60,086 bases of DNA from Nitrospirota bacterium (GCA_016194285.1 JACQBZ010000102.1:1-60086); one strand, 5' to 3'; shown: positions 1,132 through 56,267, counted from the stretch's first letter. Made by a program: numbers and translations. Notes: generated by a model not told the origin, from the sequence alone.

Positions 1132-3084
1132 TCATCCTTTAAAAAAGAGCGCCCCCAGAGGAGGCAAGGTCAACGTGAGCGAGTGAGAACGCTGATGAGC
1201 GGGAACGGGGGCGGCCTCGACCCCGCCGGAATTTCCAAGTCCGCTCCCGCCGTAGACGGCGGCATCGCTGTTGAGAAGTTCGCGCCAAAAGCCGCCTCTC
1301 GGAACACCGACCCGATAGTGATGTTTCGATACCGGGGTGAAATTGCAGACCACCAGGAGGATCTCATCGGCATTTTTCCCCTTTCGTAGAAAACTGACGA
1401 CGCTCTGCTCCCAATCGTTGGAATCGATCCATTCAAATCCCTGAGCGTCGAAATCCAGACCATAGAGGGCCGGTTCCATTCGATACAGGCGGTTCAGATC
1501 CTTTAGCCACTGCTGGATCCCGCAATGGTACGGGTATTGAAGGACGTGCCATTCCAGGCTCTCCTCATGTTTCCATTCGCGAACCTGGCCGAATTCCCCG
1601 CCCATGAAGAGCAACTTCTTCCCGGGGTGGCCGTACATATAGCCGTACAACAGACGGAGGTTGGCGAACCGCTGCCATTCATCCCCGGGCATCTTCCCGA
1701 GGAGGGACCCCTTGCCGTGAACCGCCTCATCATGGGATAGGGGCAGGATGAAATTTTCCGTAAAGGCATACCAGAGGCTGAAGGTGAGCTGGTTATGATG
1801 ATATTTCCGATACAGGGGATCTTCCGAAATATAGGCCAGCGTGTCGTGCATCCAGCCCATGTTCCACTTCATCCCAAAGCCCAGCCCGCCGACGAAGGTC
1901 GGCCGGGAGACCATCGGCCAGGCGGTGGACTCCTCCGCGAAAATTTGAATATCAGGAAATTTCCCATAAGCCGATTCATTGAGCTGTTTGAGGAAATGAA
2001 TCGCCTCGAGATTCTCGCGACCGCCGTGTACATTGGGGATCCACTCGCCTTCATTTCGGGCGTAGTCCAGATAGAGCATCGAGGCCACGGCGTCTACCCG
2101 AAGGCCGTCCAGATGGTATTTCTCAAGCCAGAAAAGCGCGTTGCTGATGAGGAACGCCCTCACCTCGTTCCGGCCGTAATTGAAAATGTAACTGTTCCAT
2201 TCCGGATGAAATCCCTTTCGTGGATCGGCATGCTCGTAGAGATGGGTCCCGTCAAAATAGGCCAGCCCGTGCTCATCCGAGGGAAAGTGGGAGGGGACCC
2301 AGTCCAGAATCACGCCGATCCCCTGTTGATGGAGGTGATCGATCAGGACCATGAAATCCTGGGGCGTGCCGTATCTCCGCGTCGGGGCAAAATATCCCGT
2401 CGTCTGATATCCCCACGAACCGTAGAAGGGATGCTCCGTGACGGGCAGAAACTCGACGTGCGTGAAGCCCATTTCTTTGACGTAGGCCGCCAGGAGCGGA
2501 GCCATCTCCCGGTAGGTTAACGAACGGTTTCCTTCTTCCGGGACCCGCCTCCATGAACCGAGATGGACCTCGTAAATCGCGAGGGGAGCGCCGAGGGCGT
2601 TTTGCCGTTTGCGGTTCGCCATCCAGTCTTGATCGTTCCAGTCATGGTTCAGATCCCAGACCACGGAGGACGTTTTGGGCGGGGATTCCCAGCCGAAGGC
2701 GAACGGGTCGCCTTTTTTCACTTCAAACCGTTTGTTTCTGGAGATCAGATGATATTTGTAAAGAGCGCCGGGGCCGACATTGGGAAGAAACCCCTCCCAG
2801 ATTCCGGACTCATCCTTTCGGACCTCGAGCAGGTGGGCGGACGGATTCCATCCGTTAAAATCCCCCACGACCGAAACCCGCTCGGCATTCGGCGCCCATA
2901 CCGCAAAGTAAGTTCCGGCGCCGCCTTCTCCCGACATCGGATGCGCGCCCAACTTCTCATACAACAACGTATGATTGCCCTGTTTGAAAAGAAAAACGTC
3001 GTAATCCGTTAAAAGACCGGCCGGATTGGAACCCGGTGCGTGTGGTGTCCTGATCGGATCTTCTCGTGTTGGCTTGTTTTCCAT
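1132..3084 (-). CDS. glgB: 1,4-alpha-glucan branching enzyme
   Basis: GH13 motifs [44 protein letters not shown] and LSHDE. Confidence 0.97.
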
Positions 3085-3136
3085 GGTTCTTCCTGTTCAA
3101 ATCATAAAGCCATCGCCGGCGGTTGTCAAACAATCT

Positions 3137-3211
3137 GCAGGGGCTCGCGTCGCCCCCTTCACCGGCAGAGCCGGATGGAGCCTCCCCCTCTCGCTCGCTT
3201 TGCTCGCTGGG
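3137..3211 (+). repeat. 75-bp dispersed REP/MITE-like element, copy 1
   Basis: GCAGGGGCTCGCGTCGCCCCCTTCACCGGCAGAGCCGGATGGAGCCTCCCCCTCTCGCTCGCTTTGCTCGCTGGG, near-identical to the copies at 12606, 31638 and 56193. Confidence 0.9.
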
Positions 3212-3243
3212 TAGATCACCGCTGGCAGCGTGTGGCAGGCATT

Positions 3244-4671
3244 CTACATTATGCGAGCATTGATCAAAAAATGCGCCCAGATGCTGAGCGCGTATCCCAA
3301 GCCGATCGCCCAGGTCCATCGGAGATGGGAAAAGAAGGTGTAGACGCCGCGCGCCTGTCCCATGAGCGCCACGCCGGCGGCCGAACCGATCGAAAGGAGC
3401 GAACCGCCCACGCCGGCCGTCAAGGTGACCAGCAGCCATTGTCCGTGGGACATGTCGGGATTCATGGTCAAGACCGCGAACATGATCGGGATATTATCGA
3501 CGATCGCCGACGCCAGCCCCACCAGCACGTTGGCCCAGGTCGGGCCGAGATCGATATACAGCGTGTGAGATATCGCGGTCAGATATCCGATGGTATGGAG
3601 TCCGCCCACGGACAGGATCACCCCGTAGAAGAACATCAAGGTGTCCCACTCGATCCGTTTCATGCTGTTGAAAATGTCGAACGGTTGGACCTTCTCGCCG
3701 GATACTTCCATATCGATCTCATTGCGCCCGAGGAAATGGCCATAGATCTTCAGAAATCCCAGGCCGGTCATCATGCCGAGGACCGGCGGAACGTGAAGGA
3801 AATTGTGGAACGAGACCGTCATCACGATCGTCAAGAGGAACAGTCCGATCACCCCACGCGCGCCCCGCTTCAACCCGACGGTTTCTTGAATCGGTTTCGG
3901 TCGCCCCCTCGGAACGGCGAACGACATGATCAGCGCCGGAACGAGCCAGTTGATCAACGACGGAACGAACAGGTCGAAGAACTCGGAGAATCGGACGACG
4001 CCCTGTTGCCAGACCAGCAACGTCGTGATATCGCCGAACGGACTGAAGGCCCCGCCGGCGTTCGCGGCCACCACGATGTTGATCGCGGCCAGAGCGATGA
4101 AACGCGGGTGGCCTTCGCCTGCGGCCATGACGACGGCCGCCATCACCAGCGCGGTCGTGAGATTATCGGCGAACGGGGAGATAAAAAAGGCCAGCAGTCC
4201 GGTGATCCAGAAAATCGAGGTCAGGGAGAATCCGGAGGAGACCAGCCAGGCACGGAGCGCGTTGAAGACATTGCGCTCCTCCATGGTATTGACGTAGGTC
4301 ATCGCGGCGATCAGAAACAGGAGCAACTCGGCGTACTCGAGAAGATTGTGCCGGATCGCCGCGGCGGCCGTGGCCGTATCCCCCTGCAGGGCGTAGGCGA
4401 CGGCGATCAAGGTCCAGATCACGCCGGAGGCGACCACGACCGGCTTCGATTTGCGGAGATGTAGCAGTTCTTCGCTGATCACCAGCGCGTACGCCAAGGC
4501 GAACACGATAATCGAAATGATTCCAAACCAACTGGCGGTGAGGTCGAGAAGTCGGACGTCCTCGTTCCCGGACGAGGCGAGAACGGTCGAAGGGGACAGG
4601 AGCATCAGTAATGTCGCGAGAAAGGGCAAACCCGTCCCGGCGGTTTTTATAAGGGTGGTGATGGTTCGCAT
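3244..4671 (-). CDS. nhaD: Na+/H+ antiporter, NhaD family
   Basis: Polytopic membrane protein with LRKSKPV, FFISPFADNLTTAL, AANAGGAFSPFGDITTL, SAIVDNIP and GGSLLSIGSAAGVALMG. Confidence 0.9.
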   Translation of the reverse strand: MRTITTLIKTAGTGLPFLATLLMLLSPSTVLASSGNEDVRLLDLTASWFGIISIIVFALAYALVISEELLHLRKSKPVVVASGVIWTLIAVAYALQGDTATAAAAIRHNLLEYAELLLFLIAAMTYVNTMEERNVFNALRAWLVSSGFSLTSIFWITGLLAFFISPFADNLTTALVMAAVVMAAGEGHPRFIALAAINIVVAANAGGAFSPFGDITTLLVWQQGVVRFSEFFDLFVPSLINWLVPALIMSFAVPRGRPKPIQETVGLKRGARGVIGLFLLTIVMTVSFHNFLHVPPVLGMMTGLGFLKIYGHFLGRNEIDMEVSGEKVQPFDIFNSMKRIEWDTLMFFYGVILSVGGLHTIGYLTAISHTLYIDLGPTWANVLVGLASAIVDNIPIMFAVLTMNPDMSHGQWLLVTLTAGVGGSLLSIGSAAGVALMGQARGVYTFFSHLRWTWAIGLGYALSIWAHFLINARIM

Positions 4672-4715
4672 CGGGACTTAGAATACCCGGAACGGTATGG
4701 AGATGCAAGACGATT

Positions 4716-4776
4716 CGGCCGGCAGCGGTGCGTGGGAGCAATAACGTGAGAGCGTCGTTGCTCCCGCTGTTAGCCG
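4716..4776 (-). repeat. Degenerate attC-like imperfect hairpin after the DHFR-like gene
   Basis: Minus strand CGGCTAAC AGCGG GAGCAA...TTGCTC...CCGCTG CCGGCCG, 10 nt after the stop codon. The R'' box is close to consensus and the R' box is degenerate. Confidence 0.45.
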
Positions 4777-4786
4777 CCGTTTGGGT

Positions 4787-5314
4787 TCACTTTCGTTTTC
4801 TTTTGTAGTGGCTCTTTACAAGTCCGTTGGAATATACCTTGGTTCGTACGTGTTTGAATTGAAGATCATGGTCAAGATAACCGAACAATGGAATGCCGCC
4901 TCCGATCAGCACGGGGATCTTTGTAATAATCAGCTCATCGATGCAATCTTCTTTTAGAAAGCCCTGTATCACTTTTCCGCCGTCCACATAGATATTCGAA
5001 AAGCCTTCGTTGGAAAGATAATTCAGCAACGCTCTTGGCTTCATTGAAAGAACGGTTACTTTCCCTCTTAATCGATCCGGTATTTGTTTGACGCTCGTGC
5101 TTAGCACGAAGACTTTCTTTTCATAAGGCCAGGAAGGAAAAGTGAGGACTTTTTCATAAGTGCCCCTTCCGATTACGACCGCGTCAATCTTGCTTATAAA
5201 TTCGCGATAGTCGTCTTTCACGGGCTTCTCGAATTTAACCAGCCAATCGATCGCCCCATCTTTTCTCGCAATAAAGCCATCAAGACTTGTTCCTATGTAA
5301 ACGATTGTTTTCAA
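4787..5314 (-). CDS. Dihydrofolate reductase family / RibD C-terminal domain protein
   Basis: YIGTSLDGFIA, IGRGTYE, IYVDGGKVIQ, IDELIIT and PVLIGGGIPLF motifs. TTG start. Confidence 0.88.
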   Translation of the reverse strand: MKTIVYIGTSLDGFIARKDGAIDWLVKFEKPVKDDYREFISKIDAVVIGRGTYEKVLTFPSWPYEKKVFVLSTSVKQIPDRLRGKVTVLSMKPRALLNYLSNEGFSNIYVDGGKVIQGFLKEDCIDELIITKIPVLIGGGIPLFGYLDHDLQFKHVRTKVYSNGLVKSHYKRKRK

Positions 5315-5318
5315 TTTT

Positions 5319-5390
5319 ACCTTGACGCTGAACGGGCTTTGGAAGTTTTTTGAACGCTTTTCGAAAACGTTCTGTGGTGTGGGAGATTAC
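5319..5390 (-). pseudogene. Truncated RelE/ParE-like toxin remnant
   Basis: Reads (V)ISHTTERFRKAFKKLPKPVQRQG, overlapping the antitoxin stop. The start codon is GTA, and toxin similarity ends after ~24 codons where the DHFR gene begins. Confidence 0.7.
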
Positions 5391-5605
5391 AGCTTGTCTG
5401 GATCAAGCTTTTTTGTTCGGCCTTCACGATGCTCGGCCAGCGCTTCATCGGCCAACCGATCAAGCATGTCGGACGATTCCGCAAAGGCCCTTTCCCAACG
5501 CTGCTCGGACGCCAGTTCTTCGAGAATCCAGGTTGCAAGCGCATCCTGTTCTTTCTTCGGAAGCTTGGAAACCTCGGCCAATGCTTTCTCAAGCAGTTTT
5601 GTCAT
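5387..5605 (-). CDS. Putative type II antitoxin (72 aa)
   Basis: MTKLLEKALAEVSKLP...EQDALA...RWERAFAES...LDRLADEALAEHREGRT pattern, AAGGAG RBS, and stop/start coupling to the toxin remnant. Confidence 0.75.
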   Translation of the reverse strand: MTKLLEKALAEVSKLPKKEQDALATWILEELASEQRWERAFAESSDMLDRLADEALAEHREGRTKKLDPDKL

Positions 5606-5657
5606 GGGTGAACTCCTTTTTTATATATTATACTTCGAATAACCTCATTCCTACAAG

Positions 5658-5718
5658 CCGCTGACCGTCCGTCGGCTCCGGCGCGTAGTGGCAAGGTCAT
5701 ATTTCACGAACTGACACC
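5658..5718 (-). repeat. Cassette-junction motif J1
   Basis: Plus strand CGGCTCCGGCGCG (5673-5685) followed by GTCATATTTCACGAACTGACACC (5696-5718). Confidence 0.8.
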
Positions 5719-6326
5719 GGGCTTTTTGGGTGCATCAAATCCCTGGCATAAGGCCAGCAGAAAATCAAAAGTGCTGTCAGCGCTCCCAAAACATGGCTCA
5801 ATGGAACGGGGGAGAAGGGGACATCGTCCACCTTCACGAAGGCAAACGCGTTCATTGCCGATTCCAGGACGATCTTGCCGGTGGTGAGAAGAAGTACAGT
5901 CAGGCAAATCCAGCGCCACGGTCCGGCCTCCCGCAAGCCGTGGAGGGCGAGATAAACAACCGCCCCACAGGCAATTCCGGAAAGCCCTCCGTAGAATTGG
6001 ATGTCAGGTTGCGCGGCAAGCAGGCCGGCGCCGATTAGAATCGGCGCAAGGATGTATAAACTCTTGTAGTATGGATAACCGCGGCGTTCGATCATCCATC
6101 CGGCGATGCCGAGCGTTGCGGAATCATATACAAGATGGCTCACGGAGAAATGCACCCAATTCCCCGTCATGAGACGCCATACCTCGCCGGAAAGAATGGC
6201 CGCGCGATCGTATACAATCAGGGTCCCCGAATTCGGAACGACATACGCGAGAACCCCGGCGGCGACCATCATCAACGTCCAGACGGGTATACGTCTATCT
6301 CTCAGTTGTAATTGGCGCGTTGCCAC
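5697..6326 (-). CDS. rrtA: Rhombosortase (rhomboid-family intramembrane serine protease)
   Basis: YDRAAILSGEVWRLMTGNWVH, HL, YGGLSG catalytic Ser motif and SHVLGA His motif. Adjacent to a GlyGly-CTERM protein. Confidence 0.85.
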   Translation of the reverse strand: MATRQLQLRDRRIPVWTLMMVAAGVLAYVVPNSGTLIVYDRAAILSGEVWRLMTGNWVHFSVSHLVYDSATLGIAGWMIERRGYPYYKSLYILAPILIGAGLLAAQPDIQFYGGLSGIACGAVVYLALHGLREAGPWRWICLTVLLLTTGKIVLESAMNAFAFVKVDDVPFSPVPLSHVLGALTALLIFCWPYARDLMHPKSPVSVREI

Positions 6327-7177
6327 AGCGTGTACACTCCCATCCCGAAGACCAGCATCAGTGTGAAAGGATCCACTCCACCCCCACCGGTACTACCCGG
6401 TTTGTGTATGACTTTGTATTCTTCAGGCGAGCTTTTGACTTTTTCCTGGAAAAGTTCAAGTTGCTCTTGGAGATTTACCACAAGATCTTTGGCAGCCTCA
6501 TGGAAACTTGCGGTGCTGTCCGTTCTGAGTTGCTCGCTCAGGTTGACGGGGGTTGCCGATCCTTTGATTTGGCTGATCCCGGGTGCGCGAAAGAGCATCT
6601 TACGACTTTGAATATGGTAAACCGCCGCGTCCACCATGGTGTTTGTGTCGTCCTTCTCTCCTCTCACGACATACGCGCCGGCCAGGGTCCAATAGCTCAT
6701 AGAGAGCATGCCTTGGTCCGTGAATTGAATCTGATCGTAGGAGAGAAGGGCAATCACATCGATACCGAACATGGTCCGGAGTTGATCCAGGTTGGTAAAG
6801 CTTCCCCCGGGCCTCAGGTAGGCCGACGGGATCAGCTCAATCGATTTTACAAACGGGTATTTTTTGAAATTTTCCCCGATCTCCTTCATCAGCGCAATCT
6901 TTTCTTTCTCCGGAAGAGCGGGATTCATCGGAGGCGAAAAGTTTGTCGTGAAACCGGACCTCGTTTGTTCACCTCCCGGCACAAAGGCAATGCCGACTTT
7001 TATGGGCAGGGACAAGACGGGGACGGCGGCCGTCTCTATCGGGTCTGACTTGCCCGGGTAAAGGTAATCGACCACGCTGCTGTTATGGTGTTGCCGTTGG
7101 GAGGCGCAGCTGATTGAGAGGCCGGCGACGATGATCAAAAGACTTACCGTTGGCAAATAATATCTCGCGGTTTTCAT
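6302..7177 (-). CDS. Rhombotarget lipoprotein with GlyGly-CTERM tail
   Basis: Lipobox SISC, SSVVDYLYP and DVIALLSYDQ motifs, and a C-terminal GGGG + hydrophobic helix + WQR. AGGAGG RBS before ATG at 7177. Confidence 0.85.
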   Translation of the reverse strand: MKTARYYLPTVSLLIIVAGLSISCASQRQHHNSSVVDYLYPGKSDPIETAAVPVLSLPIKVGIAFVPGGEQTRSGFTTNFSPPMNPALPEKEKIALMKEIGENFKKYPFVKSIELIPSAYLRPGGSFTNLDQLRTMFGIDVIALLSYDQIQFTDQGMLSMSYWTLAGAYVVRGEKDDTNTMVDAAVYHIQSRKMLFRAPGISQIKGSATPVNLSEQLRTDSTASFHEAAKDLVVNLQEQLELFQEKVKSSPEEYKVIHKPGSTGGGGVDPFTLMLVFGMGVYTLWQRANYN

Positions 7178-7221
7178 ATCTGACCTCCTTTGATTGACAA
7201 ACACGGTTGAATGCCATCATT

Positions 7222-7266
7222 CGGCTCCGGCGCGGGGGAGCAATGTCATATTTCACGACCTGACCC
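7222..7266 (-). repeat. Cassette-junction motif J2
   Basis: CGGCTCCGGCGCG (7222-7234) and GTCATATTTCACGACCTGACCC (7245-7266), with the same 23-nt offset as J1. Confidence 0.85.
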
Positions 7267-7300
7267 TGGCATTTGTAAACATGGCCAAGAAAAGATTGTT

Positions 7301-7774
7301 CTATTTTTCAGGGGTATTAAAGAAATATGGGCTCCCAAAAGCCCATCCGGACATGAATGGAGTCAGATAAATATAACTAAACCCGTTCCAATCTCCCGTG
7401 ATCTCTTGCCCATCTTTTTTATAAATTGGTCTGATACGCCAATAATATCGGGTGTTGGGCTCCAAAGCTGTTTCGAGTGCATGGGAAGTTCCCGATATGT
7501 CTTTCTTCTCATAGGCTATTATTGTCTTGAGAGAAAAGCCCCCTTCAGGTTTAAATATGACGAGCTGATAAAGCAGGCCTTCCACTCCGGTCGATTTTTC
7601 AAGATCGGATGGTTCCCAGGTCAATGTGGGTTTTAGTGAATCTACAATTGGAGCGGTTGCAGGAGGTTTCCTGCCTGGAGGCTCAATTGGCCTCACCCCA
7701 GAATGCCATGAAACACAACCTGGAAGAAATAACATTGCATAGATCGTAATCAGGATCCTCATCTTTTGTTTCAT
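7301..7774 (-). CDS. Putative lipoprotein with FN3-like beta-sandwich
   Basis: Lipobox LPGC, PTLTW...YQLVI...LEPNTRYYWRIRP pattern, and AAGGAGG RBS. Confidence 0.7.
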   Translation of the reverse strand: MKQKMRILITIYAMLFLPGCVSWHSGVRPIEPPGRKPPATAPIVDSLKPTLTWEPSDLEKSTGVEGLLYQLVIFKPEGGFSLKTIIAYEKKDISGTSHALETALEPNTRYYWRIRPIYKKDGQEITGDWNGFSYIYLTPFMSGWAFGSPYFFNTPEK

Positions 7775-7796
7775 ATGTCCTCCTTGTGTTATTTAT

Positions 7797-7829
7797 GCCT
7801 AACGGCCATAACTGAGCAGCCGTGTCAGC
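7797..7829 (-). repeat. attC right half ending in a perfect GTTAGGC core
   Basis: Minus strand GCTGACACGGCTGCTCAGTTATGGCC-GTTAGGC, 22 nt before the ATG at 7774. Confidence 0.55.
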
Positions 7830-7846
7830 AATTCAAAAGTCATTTC

Positions 7847-7896
7847 CCGCCCAACCGTCCCCGGCTCCGGCGCGGGGGAGAATTGTACTCCGACCC
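7847..7896 (-). repeat. Cassette-junction motif J3
   Basis: CGGCTCCGGCGCG (7862-7874) and AATTGTACTCCGACCC (7881-7896). The minus strand continues into GTTGGGC, which fits GTTRRRY. Confidence 0.8.
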
Positions 7897-7946
7897 GATC
7901 TTCCCCCCTCACAGCCGCTTCAAATCTTGTCGTCAACGGATTTCCT

Positions 7947-8441
7947 TTAGCAATGAGTCGTTTTACCCTCTTCTTGCGGAGGTGCAAGTCGGGCGCTCTC
8001 GCTTTTCCCGGCCCGCTCGCGGAGATAGGCTACCACGACTGTTTGCTTCTTACATATAGCCACATCCAATGGGGTCTGGTCGGACTCGTTCCTAGCATTT
8101 GGGTCTGCTCCTTTACTCAACAGCAACTCAACTATTTCCTTCCAGCCGGCGCCTGCCGCCAAATGTAGGGGAGTCACCTTGAATTGCATTTCGGAGTTAA
8201 TGTCTGCTCCGTTGGCTAGAAGAAATTCAACTACGTCCTTATGGCCGTAGGCTACCGCGACATGCAGCGGTGTACCCCCAAACTTATCTCTGGCGTTTAT
8301 CAATCGAGGGTTTTGACCCAGCAGTTCCTTTACCACTACCAAGTCACCGACCATTGCTGTTTTATGGAGTGCCGTCGTTGAAGCGCATCCAACGACCCCT
8401 ATCGAAACCGCAAGCACAAATGTTGTAATTCCTGGTCTCAT
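7947..8441 (-). CDS. Ankyrin-repeat lipoprotein
   Basis: Lipobox VVGC and ankyrin motifs GTPLHVAV...LLANGADIN, TPLHLAA...LLSKGADPN and TPLDVA. Confidence 0.88.
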   Translation of the reverse strand: MRPGITTFVLAVSIGVVGCASTTALHKTAMVGDLVVVKELLGQNPRLINARDKFGGTPLHVAVAYGHKDVVEFLLANGADINSEMQFKVTPLHLAAGAGWKEIVELLLSKGADPNARNESDQTPLDVAICKKQTVVVAYLRERAGKSESARLAPPQEEGKTTHC

Positions 8442-8482
8442 AAAACCTCCTTCTTTTGCAAACCAAATTCCAAATTCAATGC

Positions 8483-8509
8483 CCGCTCACCGCCCCCGGC
8501 TCCGGCGCA
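8483..8509 (-). repeat. Cassette-junction motif J4
   Basis: CCGCTCACCGCCCCCGGCTCCGGCGCA, matching J1 and J3. Confidence 0.75.
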
Positions 8510-8547
8510 GGGCAGGATACAATGTTTGCTTTATTTGATCTTCCTTC

Positions 8548-8607
8548 TTCCAGCGCCCTGCGGGAGCCGCGCCGTTTTATGGCGTCGGCTCGACGCGGTT
8601 GTTAGGT
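8548..8607 (-). repeat. attC recombination site (R' box degenerate)
   Basis: ACCTAAC AACC GCGTCGAGCCGACGCC ATAAAAC GGCGCGGCTCCCGC AGGGC GCTGGAA: 60 bp with an RYYYAAC box and an imperfect stem with two unpaired bases, just after a stop codon. Confidence 0.75.
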
Positions 8608-8619
8608 CAGGATGGTTTT

Positions 8620-8788
8620 TCTACTCTTCATGCGCTCGCACACGCACAACACGGTAATTCAGCATTTCCACATCCCACTTCCTTATTTCGGTGTCGCCCT
8701 CTAAATACCCAAATGGATAGACCGCACGAACCCCCTCTGGTGTTTTTTCCGCCTTCACTGATTGTTTGTAATTCAGATAGCCTGGACA
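8620..8788 (-). pseudogene. 5'-truncated cassette ORF fragment
   Basis: Open frame CPGYLNYKQSVKAEKTPEGVRAVYPFGYLEGDTEIRKWDVEMLNYRVVRVRAHEE* ends just before the attC and lacks a convincing start at its 5' end, which abuts the TACTCTGACCCC motif at ~8801-8812. Confidence 0.45.
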
Positions 8789-8917
8789 TATAATTTAATT
8801 GGGGTCAGAGTATATTTGGCCATTTGACGCCTGCCGCTCCAGCCTGATCTGCCGCGATCTAGGACAGCCCACTGCTTCCATCAACAATCGATTCATCTTC
8901 CCTGCCTCCCGTCTCTA

Positions 8918-8957
8918 CGGCCTATATATAATAGATGCAGGTCGAATATATTGCTCC
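8918..8957. repeat. ~40-bp direct repeat, copy 1 (attI-like or promoter-like)
   Basis: CGGCCTATATATAATAGATGCAGGTCGAATATATTGCTCC. Confidence 0.85.
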
Positions 8958-8963
8958 AAATGC

Positions 8964-9545
8964 TTAAGCCTCACCCACGTGATCCTGATTTACATTCTTA
9001 CGACCCAACACTCTATATCGAGTGATGCTTTCTCTTGTGCGGAACCCGATTTTCTTGTCTCGCGGTTCAGGCTGCGCCATCAGTTGACGGATGGCGTCGA
9101 ACACCACCCTGAACTGGGCGTCGTATTTCTTTTCCAAATCATTGAGCTTGCGCGTCAAGCTCTCTTGTGAGGCAATCATCCGGCGGAGTCTGACAAAGGT
9201 TCGCATAATCTGGACATTGACCTGGATCGCGCGTTTACTCTGCAGAATGCTTGAGAGCATTGAAACACCCTGCTCGGTAAATGCAAAGGGAGAATATCTT
9301 CGACCGCCCCAACTTGAGGTCACAAATTGTGACCTCAAGATTGAAAACTCTGCCTTGGATAGTTGGAACATGAAATCATCAGGGAATCTTTCTTGATTGC
9401 GCTTAACCGCTTGGACAAGCACTTTTGTCGTTACCCTATAAAGTTCCGCCAAATCACTGTCCAGCATCACCTTATGTCCTCGGATCAACAAGATCTTCTT
9501 CTCAACAACTTCACTTGGAATCAACACTCTCATCTGATCCCCCAT
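8964..9545 (-). CDS. ORF6N-domain DNA-binding protein
   Basis: [50 protein letters not shown] and KIGF motifs. Confidence 0.9.
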
Positions 9546-9578
9546 TTGCTACCCCTGCCCAATCCACCCCCGCCCCTC

Positions 9579-9620
9579 CGGCCTATATTATATATAGATG
9601 CAGGTCGAATACATTGCTCC
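9579..9620. repeat. ~40-bp direct repeat, copy 2
   Basis: CGGCCTATATTATATATAGATGCAGGTCGAATACATTGCTCC. Confidence 0.85.
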
Positions 9621-9657
9621 TTTTCGGCCCCGCATGGGGCGTTCATTTTTTCATATA

Positions 9658-9683
9658 AGGGGCACGGCGCGCCGTGCCCCTAC
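9658..9683 (-). repeat. GTAG-type REP palindrome
   Basis: Perfect 24-bp palindrome AGGGGCACGGCGCGCCGTGCCCCT followed by AC (GTAG on the minus strand). Confidence 0.75.
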
Positions 9684-9748
9684 CATTATAATGACCCCAT
9701 TGCTTAATGACATGGATTAGACCGATCATCCGACAGAAGGATCTGTCC

Positions 9749-10639
9749 ATGAAGATCTTCGTCCATTTTCTTCTCCTGGTTTTGCTCTTTCCGGTGCCGG
9801 TTTTCTCTCAGGAAGCCACTCCATCCCTCCAGTCCTTGCTTGAGGATGGGGATCATCACTGGGATCTTCGAGCCGAGGGCGCACGAGGCTCAGAGCCCGA
9901 CCCAAAGGAGATCGACCAGGCGATCGCGGCGTATCGTCAGGCGCTGGATTCCAATCCGGAGTCCTTGGCCGCCCGGTGGCGATTGATGCGGGCCTATTTC
10001 TTCAAAGGGGAGTATGCGACGGATGACAAAGAGGGGAAGAAAAAGATTTTTGACGAAGGCAAGGCTGTCGGGGAAAAAGCGCTTCAACAGATTCGGCAGG
10101 AAGCTTCACGGCGAACCGGCAATTCCTTGGACAAAGCCAGCCCGGTTGAGCTGGTTCATTATCTTGAAAATTCACCCGACGTCGTCGGTTGCTTTTTTTG
10201 GTCCTCGGCCAACTGGGGACAATGGGCCCTGGCCTACGGAAAGTTTCAAGCCGTCCGACAGGGGGCGGCCGGGAAAATTCGCGATCTCGCCAAGGCGGTG
10301 ACGATCTTGGACTCGAATTATGCGGAAGGAGGAGGGTATCGCGTCCTGGGACGTCTTTATCATCAGACACCCTATGTCCCGTTTATCACCGGCTGGGCCT
10401 CCACAAAGGAGGCGGTCGCATTTTTACGGCGGGCTTACCAGATTGGACCTCATAATTCCATCAATCGGCTTTACCTGGCCGAGGCGCTCTGGGATTGGAA
10501 TAAAGATTCACGGAAAGAGGCGCTGACGCTGGCCGAGGACTTGATTCACGACGCACCCCGGCCGGAATTCCAGGTGGAGGATCAAGCCGCTCAGGAAAGA
10601 GCTCAAGCGCTTTTGGAAAAGTGGCGAGGGAAAAACTAA
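9749..10639 (+). CDS. Exported TPR-like helical protein (TRAP TatT-like)
   Basis: Signal peptide plus helical repeats (AIAAYRQAL, GGYRVLGRLY, NRLYLAEAL). Start adjusted to ATG at 9749. Confidence 0.65.
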   Translation: MKIFVHFLLLVLLFPVPVFSQEATPSLQSLLEDGDHHWDLRAEGARGSEPDPKEIDQAIAAYRQALDSNPESLAARWRLMRAYFFKGEYATDDKEGKKKIFDEGKAVGEKALQQIRQEASRRTGNSLDKASPVELVHYLENSPDVVGCFFWSSANWGQWALAYGKFQAVRQGAAGKIRDLAKAVTILDSNYAEGGGYRVLGRLYHQTPYVPFITGWASTKEAVAFLRRAYQIGPHNSINRLYLAEALWDWNKDSRKEALTLAEDLIHDAPRPEFQVEDQAAQERAQALLEKWRGKN

Positions 10640-10671
10640 AGGTTTGCATTCCAATCCGCGCTCAAAATTCC

Positions 10672-10701
10672 TTGACAACGTTACCCCGCACCCAGTAGAA
10701 T
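10672..10701 (+). promoter_or_regulatory. Sigma-70-type promoter
   Basis: TTGACA-N18-TAGAAT upstream of the gene at 10745. Confidence 0.55.
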
Positions 10702-10744
10702 GCGGCCAGTTTTTATTCGGGTTGATCCGATTATGGAAAGGGTC

Positions 10745-11575
10745 ATGATGACCTCGCGTGTCTTTCTCCTCGGACTGATGACTTTGCTGGCTCTTCTCCA
10801 ATCCCGTCCGGTCTTTGCGCTTCTGCCGTACCTCGACAGCGAAACCGCCGTTCCGGTGGATCGAGGTAAATCGAGGCTGGATGTAAGCCTGCAGCTCGAT
10901 CGTTGGAACAGCCGTCTCTCCACCGATGCCCTAGAGGCGGAACTGAGTTACGGTCTGATCAACAATCTCGATTTCTCGGTGGATGTCCCGTATCTGGTTC
11001 GCAAGGTGAAAGGCTCGGGGGATGTAAACGGCGCGGGCGATGAAGACGGCGTGGGCGATGTGACGCTCAAGGTGAAGATTCGTTTCATCAAAGGGCGAGA
11101 AGCGAATCCAGTTTCGATCGCCGGGCAATTGACCGTGAAGTTTCCGAGTTGCAACAAGAACAAGGCCCTCTCCCCGGAATGCACCGGTGAGCCCGACGTG
11201 GGTCTACGCGCGATCGCGTCGAAAGAATTTTTCCCCGTGACGGTTCATCTGAACCTGGGATATATCTTCGTCGGTAATCCGGCCAATACCAATCTGAACG
11301 ACGTCCTGACCTACAGTCTTGCGTTTGACTATCTGACGACGGCCGATTACCTTCACGTGGTGGGCGAACTGGCGGGCCAGTCCAACCGGTATCCCAAAAC
11401 ATCGGACGAGGCATTCCGGCTTTCGGCCAAGACATCCGCGGATCCGCTGTCGGCCCTGGTCGGTTTGCTGTACGACTTGGATATCAACAAGGCGCTGACG
11501 GTGTCATGGAGTATGGGGTTGACACAGGCCAGTCCGGACTACAGTTTGTCGGCGGGATTCCGATATTTATTTTAG
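10745..11575 (+). CDS. Putative outer-membrane beta-barrel (MetA-pathway/phenol degradation-like transporter)
   Basis: Signal peptide, GVGDVTL motif, alternating beta-strands and C-terminal FRYLF. Confidence 0.65.
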   Translation: MMTSRVFLLGLMTLLALLQSRPVFALLPYLDSETAVPVDRGKSRLDVSLQLDRWNSRLSTDALEAELSYGLINNLDFSVDVPYLVRKVKGSGDVNGAGDEDGVGDVTLKVKIRFIKGREANPVSIAGQLTVKFPSCNKNKALSPECTGEPDVGLRAIASKEFFPVTVHLNLGYIFVGNPANTNLNDVLTYSLAFDYLTTADYLHVVGELAGQSNRYPKTSDEAFRLSAKTSADPLSALVGLLYDLDINKALTVSWSMGLTQASPDYSLSAGFRYLF

Positions 11576-11631: not shown

Positions 11632-12600
11632 CTAAATCCACTTCTTCCTGCGGAAGAACCACAGCATTACCACGACGATGCCCACCATCACCCCGATCGT
11701 CGCGGGATATCCGTAGCGCCATTCCAATTCGGGCATGTACTTAAAGTTCATGCCGTAGATGCTGGGGATGACCATGAGCGGCATAAAGACGACGGTGAGC
11801 GCCGTGAGCACTTTTATGACCTCGTTCAAACGGTTCGACACCATGGAGATGTAGGCCTCCAGGAGCCCGGTCGTAAGGTCTTTATACGATTCAGCCAGGT
11901 CGTTAATCCGCACGAGATGGTCATACACATCTCGGAAATAAATGGCCGTCCGTTTGTTGACCACCGCGAACGGGTCGCGGCTCAACCGGTTGAGAATTTC
12001 CCGCTGTGGACTGGTCACCCGCCGAAGGGACATCCCGTCCCGTTTCAGTGAAAATATCCGGTCCAGGGTTTCCTTGCTGGGAGACGCAGTGACCTCTTTT
12101 TCGAGCTCATCCAACACTTCGTCGAAGTCATCTAAGATGGGAAAGTAATTGTCAACCGTACCGTCCAGAATCTCGTAGAGTAGGAAATCCGTTCCCCGGG
12201 ACATGGTGAGAGAATTTTTCAGGCACCGTTCTTTCGTGCGGTTGATGCTGCGGGACAATTGCTGATGATAGGTGACCAGGTGGCGTTTGCCCAGAAAAAA
12301 GTTGAGCTCGACCGTTTTGAACGTTCCGGAGACGTCTCCGCGACGGGCTCCGTGGAGCACGAGGAAGAGGTAATCGCCGAAATCATCCAGTTTGGGAAGG
12401 TGGGATTCGGCGATGCAATCCTCGATGGCCAGGGGATGAAAATTAAAGATGGAAGACAGGATCTGGTTCTCTTCCTCTGTCGGAGCTTCCAGATCCACCC
12501 AGACCGATTCGGTTTCGTCCTTCAGCAGGCTGGGTAAAGACTCGGAATCCGTAATCCTCCGTAGGCCGTTTTGCTTTGAGAAGGCAAAAATCTCGATCAT
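11632..12600 (-). CDS. corA: Magnesium/cobalt transporter
   Basis: HPLAIED and YGMNF signature, MPEL, two C-terminal TM helices. Confidence 0.95.
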   Translation of the reverse strand: MIEIFAFSKQNGLRRITDSESLPSLLKDETESVWVDLEAPTEEENQILSSIFNFHPLAIEDCIAESHLPKLDDFGDYLFLVLHGARRGDVSGTFKTVELNFFLGKRHLVTYHQQLSRSINRTKERCLKNSLTMSRGTDFLLYEILDGTVDNYFPILDDFDEVLDELEKEVTASPSKETLDRIFSLKRDGMSLRRVTSPQREILNRLSRDPFAVVNKRTAIYFRDVYDHLVRINDLAESYKDLTTGLLEAYISMVSNRLNEVIKVLTALTVVFMPLMVIPSIYGMNFKYMPELEWRYGYPATIGVMVGIVVVMLWFFRRKKWI

Positions 12601-12605
12601 CGTTT

Positions 12606-12680
12606 GTAGGGGCTCGCGTCGCCCCCTCCACCGGCGAAGCCGGATGGAGCCTCCCCCTCTCGCTCGCGTTGCTCGCTGGG
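12606..12680 (+). repeat. 75-bp dispersed element, copy 2
   Basis: GTAGGGGCTCGCGTCGCCCCCTCCACCGGCGAAGCCGGATGGAG...GCTCGCTGGG. Confidence 0.9.
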
Positions 12681-12721
12681 AAGATCCACACGGCCGCCCG
12701 TCGGGCTGTCGAAATCAAATT

Positions 12722-17552: not shown

Positions 17553-18440
17553 TCATCCCCGCGGGTGGAGTTGTTGATGAATCTGTTTCAAGCGATGGCG
17601 GGTGACCTGCGTATAGATCTGCGTCGTGGAAAGGTCGGCGTGACCCAGCATGGCCTGGACCGAACGCAGGTCCGCTCCTCGTTCCAATAGATGCGTCGCG
17701 AAGGAATGCCGCAGCATGTGCGGTGAAACAGAACGCTTGATGCCGGCCCGTCGAACGTAATTCTTCAACAGCTTCCAGCAGCCCTGCCGTGTCAACCCGT
17801 CTCCGGAGCGGTTGAGGAAGACCCGGTCGGAGACCTTCCCCTTGGCCAATTTTGCCCGAGCGTTTTCAAGGTACGTCTTGAGCTTTTGAAGCGCCATCTC
17901 GCCCATCGGGATGATCCGCTGTTTACCGCCCTTGCCGGTGGCCAGGACGTATCCGACTTCGGTATGTACGCCCTGCAGCGGCAGCGCGGTCAGTTCCGAG
18001 ACGCGCAGTCCGGTGGCGTACATCAATTCGATCAGGGCATCATCGCGCACGGCCGAAGGCGTGCGGCCCTTGGGAAGGTTGAGCAGGCGTTCGACTTCTT
18101 CAAAGGCCATCGTCTTCGGCAATCGCTTCCAGTCGCGGGGCGATTCCACATTATGGGTGGGATCCGTCTGGAGTATTTTTTCGCGATTGAGAAAACGGTA
18201 ATAGTTGCGAAGGGTCGCGATCTGGCGCGCGAGCGAGCGGGAGGAAAGGCCGTTTTGTTTTCGGGCGGCCAGAAAATCAAGAAGATCCCGGCGGGTGACG
18301 TCTTCCAAATGGTTCAACGCTCTGGCCTTTAGGAATTCCGAGAACCCTTTCAGATCGGCGCCGTAGGCCGCGATCGTGTTCGAAGAGAGTCCCTTCTCGA
18401 CCATCAGGTATTGAAGAAACTGTTGGATATGGGCTTGCAT
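17553..18440 (-). CDS. xerD: Site-specific tyrosine recombinase XerD
   Basis: YATGLRVSEL, GKGGKQR, SPHMLRHSFATHLL and LGHADLSTTQIYT. Start adjusted to MQAHIQQF. Confidence 0.93.
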   Translation of the reverse strand: MQAHIQQFLQYLMVEKGLSSNTIAAYGADLKGFSEFLKARALNHLEDVTRRDLLDFLAARKQNGLSSRSLARQIATLRNYYRFLNREKILQTDPTHNVESPRDWKRLPKTMAFEEVERLLNLPKGRTPSAVRDDALIELMYATGLRVSELTALPLQGVHTEVGYVLATGKGGKQRIIPMGEMALQKLKTYLENARAKLAKGKVSDRVFLNRSGDGLTRQGCWKLLKNYVRRAGIKRSVSPHMLRHSFATHLLERGADLRSVQAMLGHADLSTTQIYTQVTRHRLKQIHQQLHPRG

Positions 18441-18465
18441 GTGGGTGCCTTCGTCAATCTCTATT

Positions 18466-19617
18466 CTACGGTGAACGCAAAGGATAGCCGTTGCGCTTAA
18501 GATGGTTAATGATCCTGCGACTGTGTTCCTGACCCCGTGTTTCAAGAGAGAGATCCACCCGACTCTGGGTGATGGGAAGTCCGGATGAAAGACGATCGTG
18601 AACGATGTGAAGAATGTTGGCGCCCATCTCGCCGATGGCGGCGGCGAGCTTGGCCAGGGCTCCGGGTCGGTCGGGAAGAACGACCGAGAGGCGCAGGAGA
18701 CGACCGGTTCGGACCAGGCCCCGTTCGATAATCCGTTCAAGGAGGGTGACGTCGATGTTTCCGCCGGTGATCACGAGACAGACCGGACCCCGAAGCCGAC
18801 GCCCGTGGTTCAACAGCGCCGCCAGAGGGACGGCGCCGGCCCCTTCGGCGATGATTCGCTTGTGCTCGATCAGCAACAGGACGGCCTCGGCGATCTCGTC
18901 CTCCGCGACCCGGATCGTGCGATCCAGGTACCGCTCCAAAAGCGGCCGCGTTATCCTACCAGGGGATTTAACGGCGATTCCGTCCGCCAGGGTCGGTCGA
19001 GCCGTGGCGGTAACGCCGACGACCTGAATTCCGGGCTTCACCGTTTTCACCGCAATCGCGATTCCGGAAGCGATGCCGCCTCCCCCGACGGGAACAAGGA
19101 TCGTTCGAATGTCCGGTCGGTCTTTTAATATCTCCAGCGCGATGGTTCCCTGACCGGCGATCACCGCCTCATCATCGAAGGCGTGGATGAGAACCCTTCC
19201 TTCCGCCCGCTCGATTTCCCTGGCTTTTTCCACCGCGGCATCGAAGTCTTTTCCGTGAAGAACCACCCGGGCGCCATAAGACCGGCTCGCCTCCTGTTTG
19301 GCGATCGAGGCCCCTTCGGGCATAACGATCGTTGCGGAGATGCCGTGTGTTCGAGCCGCCAGGGCCACGCCTTGCGCGTGGTTTCCCGCCGAAGCCGTCA
19401 CCACGCCCCCTCGTCGCTGCGCCACCGTCAGTTGAGCGATCCGGTTAAACGCCCCGCGGACTTTAAAGGATCCCGTCTTCTGAAGATTTTCAAGTTTTAA
19501 AAGAACCGGCATCCCCGCCTGAAGGCTCAGCGAGCGGGATGAAACCAGCGGGGTCGCGTCGATGGAGGATCGAATTGTTTTGTAGGCCCGTTTGATCGCT
19601 GTTAATCCGATCGACAT
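18466..19617 (-). CDS. ilvA: Threonine ammonia-lyase with C-terminal ACT domain
   Basis: LKLENLQKTGSFKVRGA, ASAGNHAQG, PVGGGG, GGNID and ACT motif LPDRPGAL. Confidence 0.92.
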   Translation of the reverse strand: MSIGLTAIKRAYKTIRSSIDATPLVSSRSLSLQAGMPVLLKLENLQKTGSFKVRGAFNRIAQLTVAQRRGGVVTASAGNHAQGVALAARTHGISATIVMPEGASIAKQEASRSYGARVVLHGKDFDAAVEKAREIERAEGRVLIHAFDDEAVIAGQGTIALEILKDRPDIRTILVPVGGGGIASGIAIAVKTVKPGIQVVGVTATARPTLADGIAVKSPGRITRPLLERYLDRTIRVAEDEIAEAVLLLIEHKRIIAEGAGAVPLAALLNHGRRLRGPVCLVITGGNIDVTLLERIIERGLVRTGRLLRLSVVLPDRPGALAKLAAAIGEMGANILHIVHDRLSSGLPITQSRVDLSLETRGQEHSRRIINHLKRNGYPLRSP

Positions 19618-31637: not shown

Positions 31638-31740
31638 ATAGGGGCTCGCGTCGCCCCCTCCACACATCGGCTGCAAACCGCCGAGTGCAGGCCGGCAAAG
31701 CCGGATGGAGCCTCCCCCTCTCGCTCGTCTTGCTCGCTGG
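31638..31740 (+). repeat. 75-bp element, copy 3, with a 29-bp hairpin insert
   Basis: Same element with an extra CACATCGGCTGCAAACCGCCGAGTGCAGG at 31663-31691. Confidence 0.88.
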
Positions 31741-56169: not shown

Positions 56170-56192
56170 GTAGGGGCTCACGTCTACTGATA

Positions 56193-56267
56193 CCCAGCGA
56201 GCAACGCGAGCGAGAGGGGGAGGCTCCATCCGGCTTCGCCGGTGGAGGGGGCGACGCAAGCCCCTAT
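56193..56267 (-). repeat. 75-bp dispersed element, copy 4
   Basis: Reverse complement of the 12606 copy. An inverted stub GTAGGGGCTCACGTC lies at 56170-56184. Confidence 0.9.

Follow-up and report, generated by a model that had tools for sequence, protein, structure and literature searches.

A probable lineage-specific gene-cassette array with sequence-conserved, unfolded junction repeats in a groundwater Nitrospirae-like genome

To our knowledge, among systems that collect and rearrange single-gene cassettes only integrons are well understood, and these are identified through attC sites, whose definition rests on structure. Clusters of attC sites lacking integron integrases (CALINs; Cury et al. 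2016) consist of attC sites grouped without an integron integrase (IntI). A CALIN is called where at least two attC sites lie near each other. Y1 enzymes, as well as the substrates of IS200/IS605 insertion sequences (IS), require a hairpin beside the cleavage site. RAYT-like domesticated transposases, which accompany repetitive extragenic palindromes (REPs), have no settled function that we are aware of, nor do we know of RAYT systems that carry gene arrays. Here, we examine a run of small genes at positions 4716-9635 of a 60,086-nucleotide (nt) stretch of DNA from Nitrospirota bacterium (GCA_016194285.1, JACQBZ010000102.1:1-60086), referred to below as the window. The window is an entire contig (G000:C14) of a groundwater Nitrospirae-like genome assembled into 2.3 Mb on 102 contigs with a GC content of 56%; G, C and L numbers designate genomes, contigs of a genome and loci, respectively, with G000 being the window's own genome. 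With moderate confidence, we read 4716-9635 as the variable body of a lineage-specific gene-cassette array that runs from a head element to the RibD_C and nhaD genes.

Like a CALIN or a sedentary chromosomal integron with species-specific attC sites, the array consists of co-oriented, mostly single-gene units of unrelated function, with a repeat after each and a content that varies in close relatives; it also has one leading element at its head, no adjacent integrase and cargo that includes attC pieces. Unlike these systems, its repeat is conserved in sequence, does not fold, lacks the R'' and R' boxes and yields nothing with an attC model. Moreover, homology breaks at the core of the repeat and not at the R' crossover point, and no intact IntI was found in the eight genomes of the family that were searched. 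The conservation of the junction repeat lies in sequence, not in structure.

The 13-nt core of this repeat, CGCGCCGGAGCCG, lies on the minus strand, exactly at 5673-5685, 7222-7234 and 7862-7874 (junctions J1, J2 and J3) and with one mismatch at 8497-8509 (J4), as a first-pass annotation made from the sequence alone had reported; a fifth, degenerate copy is found at 4720-4742 (J0). At J1, J2 and J3 a GGGTCAG-like box precedes the core on its 5' side, again in agreement with that annotation. When up to two mismatches are allowed, the window holds 14 core matches against a shuffle mean of 5.94 (largest 12; none of 100 shuffles reached 14). Alignment of 18 copies from five genomes places the core at the centre of a 45-60-nt junction repeat, in which the GGGTCAG box is followed by a short A/T-rich part, ATTGCTCCCC, the invariant core CGCGCCGGAGCCG and a G-rich right arm. 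Among unrelated cassettes and across three genera, the 13-nt core hardly changes, and conservation extends over about 45 nt.

Outside such arrays, which occur in five genomes of one family, the junction repeat is hardly ever found. Exact cores number five in the 2.3 Mb of G000, three of them in the window array, one in another array fragment (C6:2185) and one at C79:7013, where the copy looked coding by eye; the genome-wide scatter that the first-pass annotation had named as a sign against its reading is absent. A sequence-only profile of the 18-copy alignment (R2), searched across 101 genomes of the class, matched seven times in G000, eight in G001, five in G002, three in G003 and two in G006. 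The other 96 genomes gave scattered weak matches, and the sole strong intergenic one (44.5 bits) lies upstream of recQ-arsC in G043, on a contig that may be mis-binned because G043 is a metagenome-assembled genome (MAG) with about 4% contamination; matches in G037 and G073 look coding by eye and were set aside. Additionally, an exact 15-mer occurs three times in G000 and six times in G001, all six on two array contigs, and at most once in the 144 genomes outside the family.

Beyond the repeat itself, genes come and go in this array, a hot spot of turnover in which homology breaks at the repeats. The comparison of relatives that the annotation had called for found gains and losses with homology breaks at the motifs, not the same genes in the same order, and gene content between the head element (~80 nt) and RibD_C varies among them. 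For example, window 5673-7266, which spans one repeat to another, has a counterpart of 90% identity on G001:C11 among different neighbours: the rhombosortase/rhombotarget unit is the first after the head there and is followed by a different gene, the unit standing at different positions in two congeners, and homology to the window stops exactly at the 3' end of the core (J1). The remaining G001 array (C59) holds PEMT, RecQ and ArsC, RRM, an open reading frame (ORF) of 119 amino acids (aa), EamA and RibD_C, with five repeats. In G002, glgB, nhaD and RibD_C are syntenic (nhaD and RibD_C at 82.6% DNA identity) and four other units extend up to the head; in G003 the head is followed by RibD_C only, and in G006 by an HNH gene and then RibD_C. 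At the ArsC junction, G000:C6 and G001:C59 are alike up to the core and diverge right after it. Since different genes lie between the same repeats in relatives, the locus looks like an integron-like gene-swapping array.

Co-occurring strains add to this picture. Logan contigs from four groundwater metagenome runs of one study, two of which may be the source of the G000 assembly, were aligned to the window, parts left uncovered being uninformative. These contigs bridge the G000 arrangement across 5111-11500 with zero differences, and they also contain other arrangements, which are attributed to co-occurring relatives: the start of RibD_C joined to the head (5317 to 8921, depth 22.5), a joint from 7260 to 8796 (depths 25.9 and 20.9, with only 22 nt on one side), and RibD_C followed by a J2-type repeat and the lipoprotein gene (7266 to 4792, depth 2.3).

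Ordinary indels could merely look anchored at the repeats if repeat and head were REP-like or regulatory intergenic sequences, such as promoters, operators or signals for transcript processing, with no role in recombination. In keeping with this, no dedicated recombinase lies nearby, breakpoints outside the repeats exist, and most of the 16 head copies examined have a co-oriented accessory gene starting roughly 70-250 nt (up to ~410) downstream; furthermore, the repeat upstream of the single-copy recQ-arsC pair in five genomes resembles a fixed 5' region. Yet repeats are confined to variable arrays and do not generally precede core genes, and they are placed 3' of stop codons, in one case overlapping a gene end (the left part of J1 covers the final codons of the rhombosortase gene). 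Moreover, at two independent junctions a unit keeps its 3' repeat while its downstream neighbour switches exactly at the core, and the head, judged by eye, is without the TTGAC-N17-TATATT type of promoter seen 5' of other genes here. A purely regulatory role is, in our view, quite unlikely.

The recQ-arsC pair is a case of its own. Its proteins are 88-91% identical between the array family and a genome of another family (G043:C304:7959-10068, L169), and in all five genomes the pair is preceded by the junction repeat with a conserved 5' region (L169, G000:C6, L021, L047 and L028), a pattern suggesting that the pair was transferred horizontally, that a contig was mis-binned or that the regulatory region is fixed. 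A large palindrome in the extended sites before recQ (L047, L028 and G043) was discarded, as it folds at shuffle level.

Integron-derived pieces are mixed into the array, as the first-pass annotation had proposed, and part of the cargo was formerly in integron cassettes, because attC pieces and R' boxes remain. An attC right half at 7797-7829, on the minus strand, ends in the R' box GTTAGGC (7803-7797) directly 5' of the ribosome-binding site of the 157-aa gene. The attC that the annotation described as full is only a partial one: at 8548-8607 (minus strand) an R''-like box and an L''/L' hairpin are present (fold z -1.8), and the R' box is missing. Across genomes, five of 25 cores have a strict R' consensus within 80 nt on their 3' side, where 2.1 would be expected (a count of five is reached in 46 of 1000 shuffles), and six have the post-hoc pattern GTTAG[GC][ACT], where 0.76 would be expected (0 of 1000 shuffles). 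Exact GTTAGGC follows the core at window J3, at C6:3304 and at the G001:C59 core 5866-5878. On G002:C24 an attC (20.7 bits with the attC model R1, described below) lies directly upstream of a core, which has an R' box on its 3' side, and the RibD_C junction of G003 has the same hairpin as J0 with the core intact.

Traces of the integrase itself are also found. No intact IntI (TIGR02249, none over the cut-off) was found in the eight family genomes searched, and the array, with no intI gene beside it, is not a complete integron; nine of 31 relatives searched, all in other families, have an intact IntI. C-terminal IntI remnants of 52-62 positions occur at G000:C34:50563-50718 (52 positions), G003:C97:3-158 and G007:C201:2241-2426. 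The open frame that holds them has 66-94 aa, looks by eye almost the same in three genera and has a promoter-like TTGACA/TATA pair upstream; in two of the assemblies the contig stops at an identical base, and in G007 an attC-like site (recognised by eye; an R1 training site, 49.4 bits) lies 3' of the remnant. Separately, G000 has two candidate integron cassette arrays on the plus strand, C65:1-5200 (L166) and C34:8000-11500 (L167), with three and five R1 sites, respectively, three of them training sites and none with a junction repeat.

These pieces raise the prospect of an ordinary decayed chromosomal integron array, a CALIN in which the junctions are worn, lineage-specific attC sites left after IntI loss. 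The attC-like hairpin and right half in the array, the R' boxes after cores, the attC upstream of the core in G002:C24, the IntI remnants, the attC-bearing cassettes on C65 and C34 and the intact IntI of other families all speak for it. However, decay is expected to erase the similarity between sites, yet the core is nearly invariant over a conserved stretch of about 45 nt; attC sites are defined by structure, and the junction repeats have none; the arrays give no significant match to an attC model and no sequence similarity to local attC sites; and, at the ArsC junction, homology breaks at the core and not at the position between G and TT of R'. We give this account little credence.

The junction repeats J1-J4 are not attC sites, which bears out the view of the annotation that they are not ordinary ones: folding, a box scanner, alignment and our own attC model all speak against their being attC sites. 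Neither strand of J1-J4 gives a better fold than shuffled sequence (z +0.6 to +0.9), and only 4712-4780 (z -2.9; 1 of 200 shuffles) and 8540-8612 (z -1.8) fold. RNAalifold on the 18 aligned repeats gave -1.18 kcal/mol with four trivial pairs, no covarying pairs and no conserved hairpin. The R'' and R' boxes are absent from the repeat, and a scanner using an R''/R' consensus with paired ends found canonical sites beside intact IntI in G012 and G013, and further sites on C65, C34 and other G000 contigs, with none on the window contig. In Smith-Waterman alignments, 20 repeats scored at shuffle level against six real attC sites (z -1.5 to +1.7). Two resemblances were dropped: that of the core region to the left half of the G012 attC sites, noticed by eye and not significant against shuffles in Smith-Waterman alignment, and a right-arm 10-mer matching a C34 attC, which is in the opposite orientation to the cassettes and has eight copies in the genome.

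A covariance model, R1, was built from seven real attC sites and has only seven base pairs. It recovered the six training sites present among the searched sequences and returned eight untrained candidates at 13.5-29.9 bits, five on C34 and C65 together, one in G012, one on G002:C24 and a weak one at L023. With default filters it found no match in the window array or at L018, L019, L021, L024, L027, L028, L047 and L168; with filters off, its best match within the array is 8548-8607 (8.2 bits, E 0.41), with the R' end unmatched. The window array has neither an attC after each cassette nor two neighbouring attC sites. The proposal that a different motif had replaced the left arm of attC at J1-J3 is not supported: the repeat stands by itself as a unit conserved in sequence, with attC pieces to either side at only some junctions.

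The head element, which opens the array at 9566-9635 (minus strand), comprises an A-box, a TATA-rich stretch and a G-rich segment, and the same element stands at the array start in G001, G002, G003 and G006. A second copy (8908-8957, minus strand), a direct repeat with the A-box at one mismatch and the TATA stretch, lies on the other side of the ORF6N gene. The A-box occurs in 3-12 copies per genome in six of eight genomes of the order, with none in the control, and a scan of genome contigs gave five loci, two in Nitrospirae bacterium and the other three probably chance matches. Part of the A-box recurs, inverted, as the left portion of the junction repeat. In some head copies (L051, L052, L058 and L061; G002 and G006) the core of the A-box is a perfect 12-nt palindrome that matches on both strands and, from its sequence, looks like a site for a dimeric DNA-binding protein. 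Other readings were rejected: an SOS/LexA-type operator, as the downstream genes are accessory and not a repair regulon; sigma-54 or sigma-70 promoters in repeat and head, seen by eye only and unconvincing; and descent of the core's right arm from the G-rich segment of the head, with weak similarity (9 of 192 pairs at z >= 3, median z 0.76).

The first-pass annotation had further suggested that a Y1/HUH enzyme acts in trans, and the predicted link does appear in relatives. A RAYT-like gene together with a GTAG-type REP directly precedes the head at seven loci in four relatives (G001:C11, G002:C24, G003:C36, G003:C19, G003:C2, G006:C66 and G006:C49). Family support for this gene is borderline, with 22.8 bits for Pfam Y1_Tnp (cut-off 23) and 61.2 bits for NCBIfam REP_Tyr_transpos (cut-off 80), and its HUH and Tyr motifs were read by eye. 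Over a ~280-nt block made up of the 3'-terminal ~130 nt of the gene, the REP and the head, identity is 80-90%, against 45-60% for the remainder of the gene. The window has the REP alone, at 9653-9684 upstream of the head, a perfect 12+12 inverted repeat with related copies on seven contigs. Of the RAYT-like copies in G000, that on C39 seems intact and is flanked by other REPs, and that on C83 is interrupted by an IS; the G001 copy at the largest array seen is a pseudogene (one TGA).

Such an enzyme could cut and join single-stranded DNA at the junction motifs and so capture integron-derived cassettes behind the head. The placement of the gene directly upstream of the head, the conserved block of RAYT-like 3' end, REP and head, the RibD_C junction, where the foot of a hairpin abuts the core in the window (J0) and in G003, and the A-box copy within the repeat are all in its favour. 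Y1 substrates would carry a hairpin beside the cleavage site, yet the 18 repeats have no conserved hairpin, J1-J4 are unfolded and the sole hairpin is that at J0. Furthermore, the gene is missing from the window, a pseudogene at the G001 array and cut on G000:C83; head elements far outnumber RAYT-like genes; the obvious cognate sequences of the gene are the GTAG REPs; and among the 80 best metagenome relatives of the protein none has head plus core, with one carrying an exact core inside a coding region. Compared with REP/RAYT systems (Bertels et al. 2017), the array shares the RAYT-like gene and palindromic GTAG REP beside relatives' array heads, the REP in the window and intergenic repeats, and differs in that its junction repeats are non-palindromic, have no GTAG head, are few per genome and cluster in arrays. 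The HUH idea as a whole is weakly supported, cutting and joining by such an enzyme is not, and we regard it as improbable.

On C83, what interrupts the RAYT-like gene, just after the HUH motif, is a ~140-nt sequence found at G000:C83:33111-33258, C62:57092-57232 and C91:3-137; it is probably an IS end because it ends three contigs. On C91 it follows a head element downstream of two apparent tRNA genes, recognised by eye.

Among recombinases, the window has no IntI or HUH gene, as the annotation had stated, and its sole tyrosine recombinase is XerD-like (17553-18740). XerC and XerD orthologues are present in all five array-bearing genomes and are the sole tyrosine recombinases common to all five; other integrase-type matches number 0-3 per genome, a figure that includes the IntI remnant in G000 and G003, with none at an array, and no serine recombinase was found in the five. 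The XerD-like gene lies 8 kb from the array in a conserved TPR-corA neighbourhood, which in G002 and G003 is not beside an array. The open frame of this gene, at 395 aa, extends about 100 aa further at the N-terminus than in relatives (about 300-330 aa), and the true start is probably internal. Xer modules (pdif/dif and integrative mobile elements exploiting Xer, IMEX) and staphylococcal cassette chromosome (SCC) composite islands resemble the array in having tandem units between short direct double-stranded sites and a recombinase encoded elsewhere or at one end. No dif-like pair of inverted arms around a 6-8-bp spacer was apparent in the array repeat by eye; unlike SCC elements, the array has much smaller units, and a serine recombinase is lacking.

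The explanation that we favour, and hold to be reasonably though not strongly probable, is a lineage-specific cassette array that recombines at double-stranded junction repeats. Units would be excised, inserted and reordered through recombination between the repeats as double-stranded DNA, carried out either by a conservative site-specific recombinase encoded elsewhere, for example XerC/XerD, or by homologous exchange across identical cores of 25-45 nt. The array would probably be read from the head element, and ordinary deletions may contribute further decay. A repeat that keeps its sequence but forms no structure is what one would sooner expect of a double-stranded core-type site, or of plain homologous exchange, than of a mechanism acting on single-strand hairpins. 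A bolder proposal, which we entertain tentatively and consider rather unlikely, is a second, integrase-independent gene-capture platform, made up of the head and sequence-specific double-stranded repeats and served in trans by the RAYT-like HUH enzyme or XerC/XerD, which would recruit cassettes, including former integron ones, and would have taken over in a Nitrospirae-like family that lost IntI.

Several observations weigh against recombination at the repeats as the explanation of the array. No recombining enzyme was identified, and neither kind of recombination product, circle or empty site, was observed. The position of the crossover varies, some breaks lying at the 3' end of the core and others at the GGGTCAG edge (7260/7266), and two breaks (8796 and about 8787, the break points of a 34-aa remnant) fall where there is no repeat, which means that illegitimate events contribute to the shape of the array as well. 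Within the window, a junction repeat is missing between the 72-aa ORF and RibD_C and between the head and ORF6N. Head elements also precede single accessory genes without repeats, and the head may therefore be merely a promoter-like element. Furthermore, the turnover events are few and not independent, because the evidence comes from five related MAGs and the contigs of one study, and model R1 is weaker than that of IntegronFinder because of its few sites and base pairs.

The genes of the array display the features expected of cassettes, being co-oriented, compact, of unrelated function and variable among relatives. Those between nhaD and the REP, which the annotation had noted as co-oriented, are all on the minus strand, as are the junction repeats; GC content differs by unit (0.43-0.57) and is 0.55-0.61 in the flanks. 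From the tail, the conserved flank is an nhaD-like transporter gene of the CitMHS family (3244-4671, minus strand; Pfam CitMHS, E 1.7e-33). J0 (4712-4780), with its hairpin and degenerate core, lies 3' of RibD_C and folds at -17.1 kcal/mol, which upholds the earlier call of a hairpin at this place. The RibD_C-domain reductase cassette (4787-5314; Pfam RibD_C, E 3.7e-18; GC 0.43) is the final cassette in G000, G002, G003 and G006, with 76-87% aa identity to homologues of four relatives. Next towards the head is a 72-aa ORF (5387-5605) without a Pfam or NCBIfam match, whose earlier label as antitoxin-like was not confirmed.

Beyond J1 (5646-5728; R2 50.4 bits) lies a two-gene unit of a rhombosortase (5697-6326; NCBIfam TIGR03902, 112.5 bits, cut-off 84) and a rhombotarget lipoprotein (6302-7177; TIGR04179, 323.7 bits, cut-off 150). 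J2 (7201-7273; R2 50.4 bits), whose GGGTCAG box ends at 7266, leads to a cassette for a 157-aa putative lipoprotein (7301-7774), named from its N-terminus, with only a sub-threshold Pfam match and a low GC of 0.44. J3 (7845-7915; R2 43.1 bits) and J4 (8466-8551; R2 39.3 bits) enclose an ankyrin-repeat protein cassette (7947-8441; Pfam Ank, E 1.3e-29). Towards the head, a 45-aa ORF (8621-8758), without a Pfam match, is probably a gene fragment, and a 34-aa remnant (8795-8896) derives from a gene whose counterpart behind the head in G003:C2 encodes 234 aa (blastn 76.5% over 183 nt; tblastx to L028). The ORF6N-domain gene (8964-9545; Pfam ORF6N, E 6.7e-35), between the two head copies, contains a perfect 13+13-nt inverted repeat with a 1-nt spacer (9313-9339). 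The other flank is a divergent gene for a TPR protein (9707-10639, plus strand; Pfam TPR_19), which in G001 and G002 is on other contigs, apart from the array head.

A search of 4000-10500 and 3050-3300 against Rfam gave no match at E <= 1. Outside the array, a ~80-nt interspersed repeat lies at 3132-3223, 12598-12700, about 31640-31740 and 56191-56265 of the window, with 83 blast matches on 42 contigs of G000 and copies 90-97% identical in many genomes of the class. Its metagenome contigs have a depth of ~100 times that of their neighbours, and tandem copies occur. The repeat is not in Rfam, and three of four folds are at shuffle level, one copy reaching z -2.2.

A keyword search of the literature found no paper linking cassette arrays to RAYT genes and only passing mentions of integrons in Nitrospirae, which does not show that nothing is in print. 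A sequence-defined, unstructured repeat in arrays with no integrase implies that cassette arrays can be kept or rebuilt via another recombination route, and tools based on attC would miss such arrays. The repeat of about 60 nt and two candidate enzyme families, RAYT-like Y1 and XerC/XerD, make a concrete test substrate, and the array offers a direct route to testing the function of a RAYT-like enzyme.

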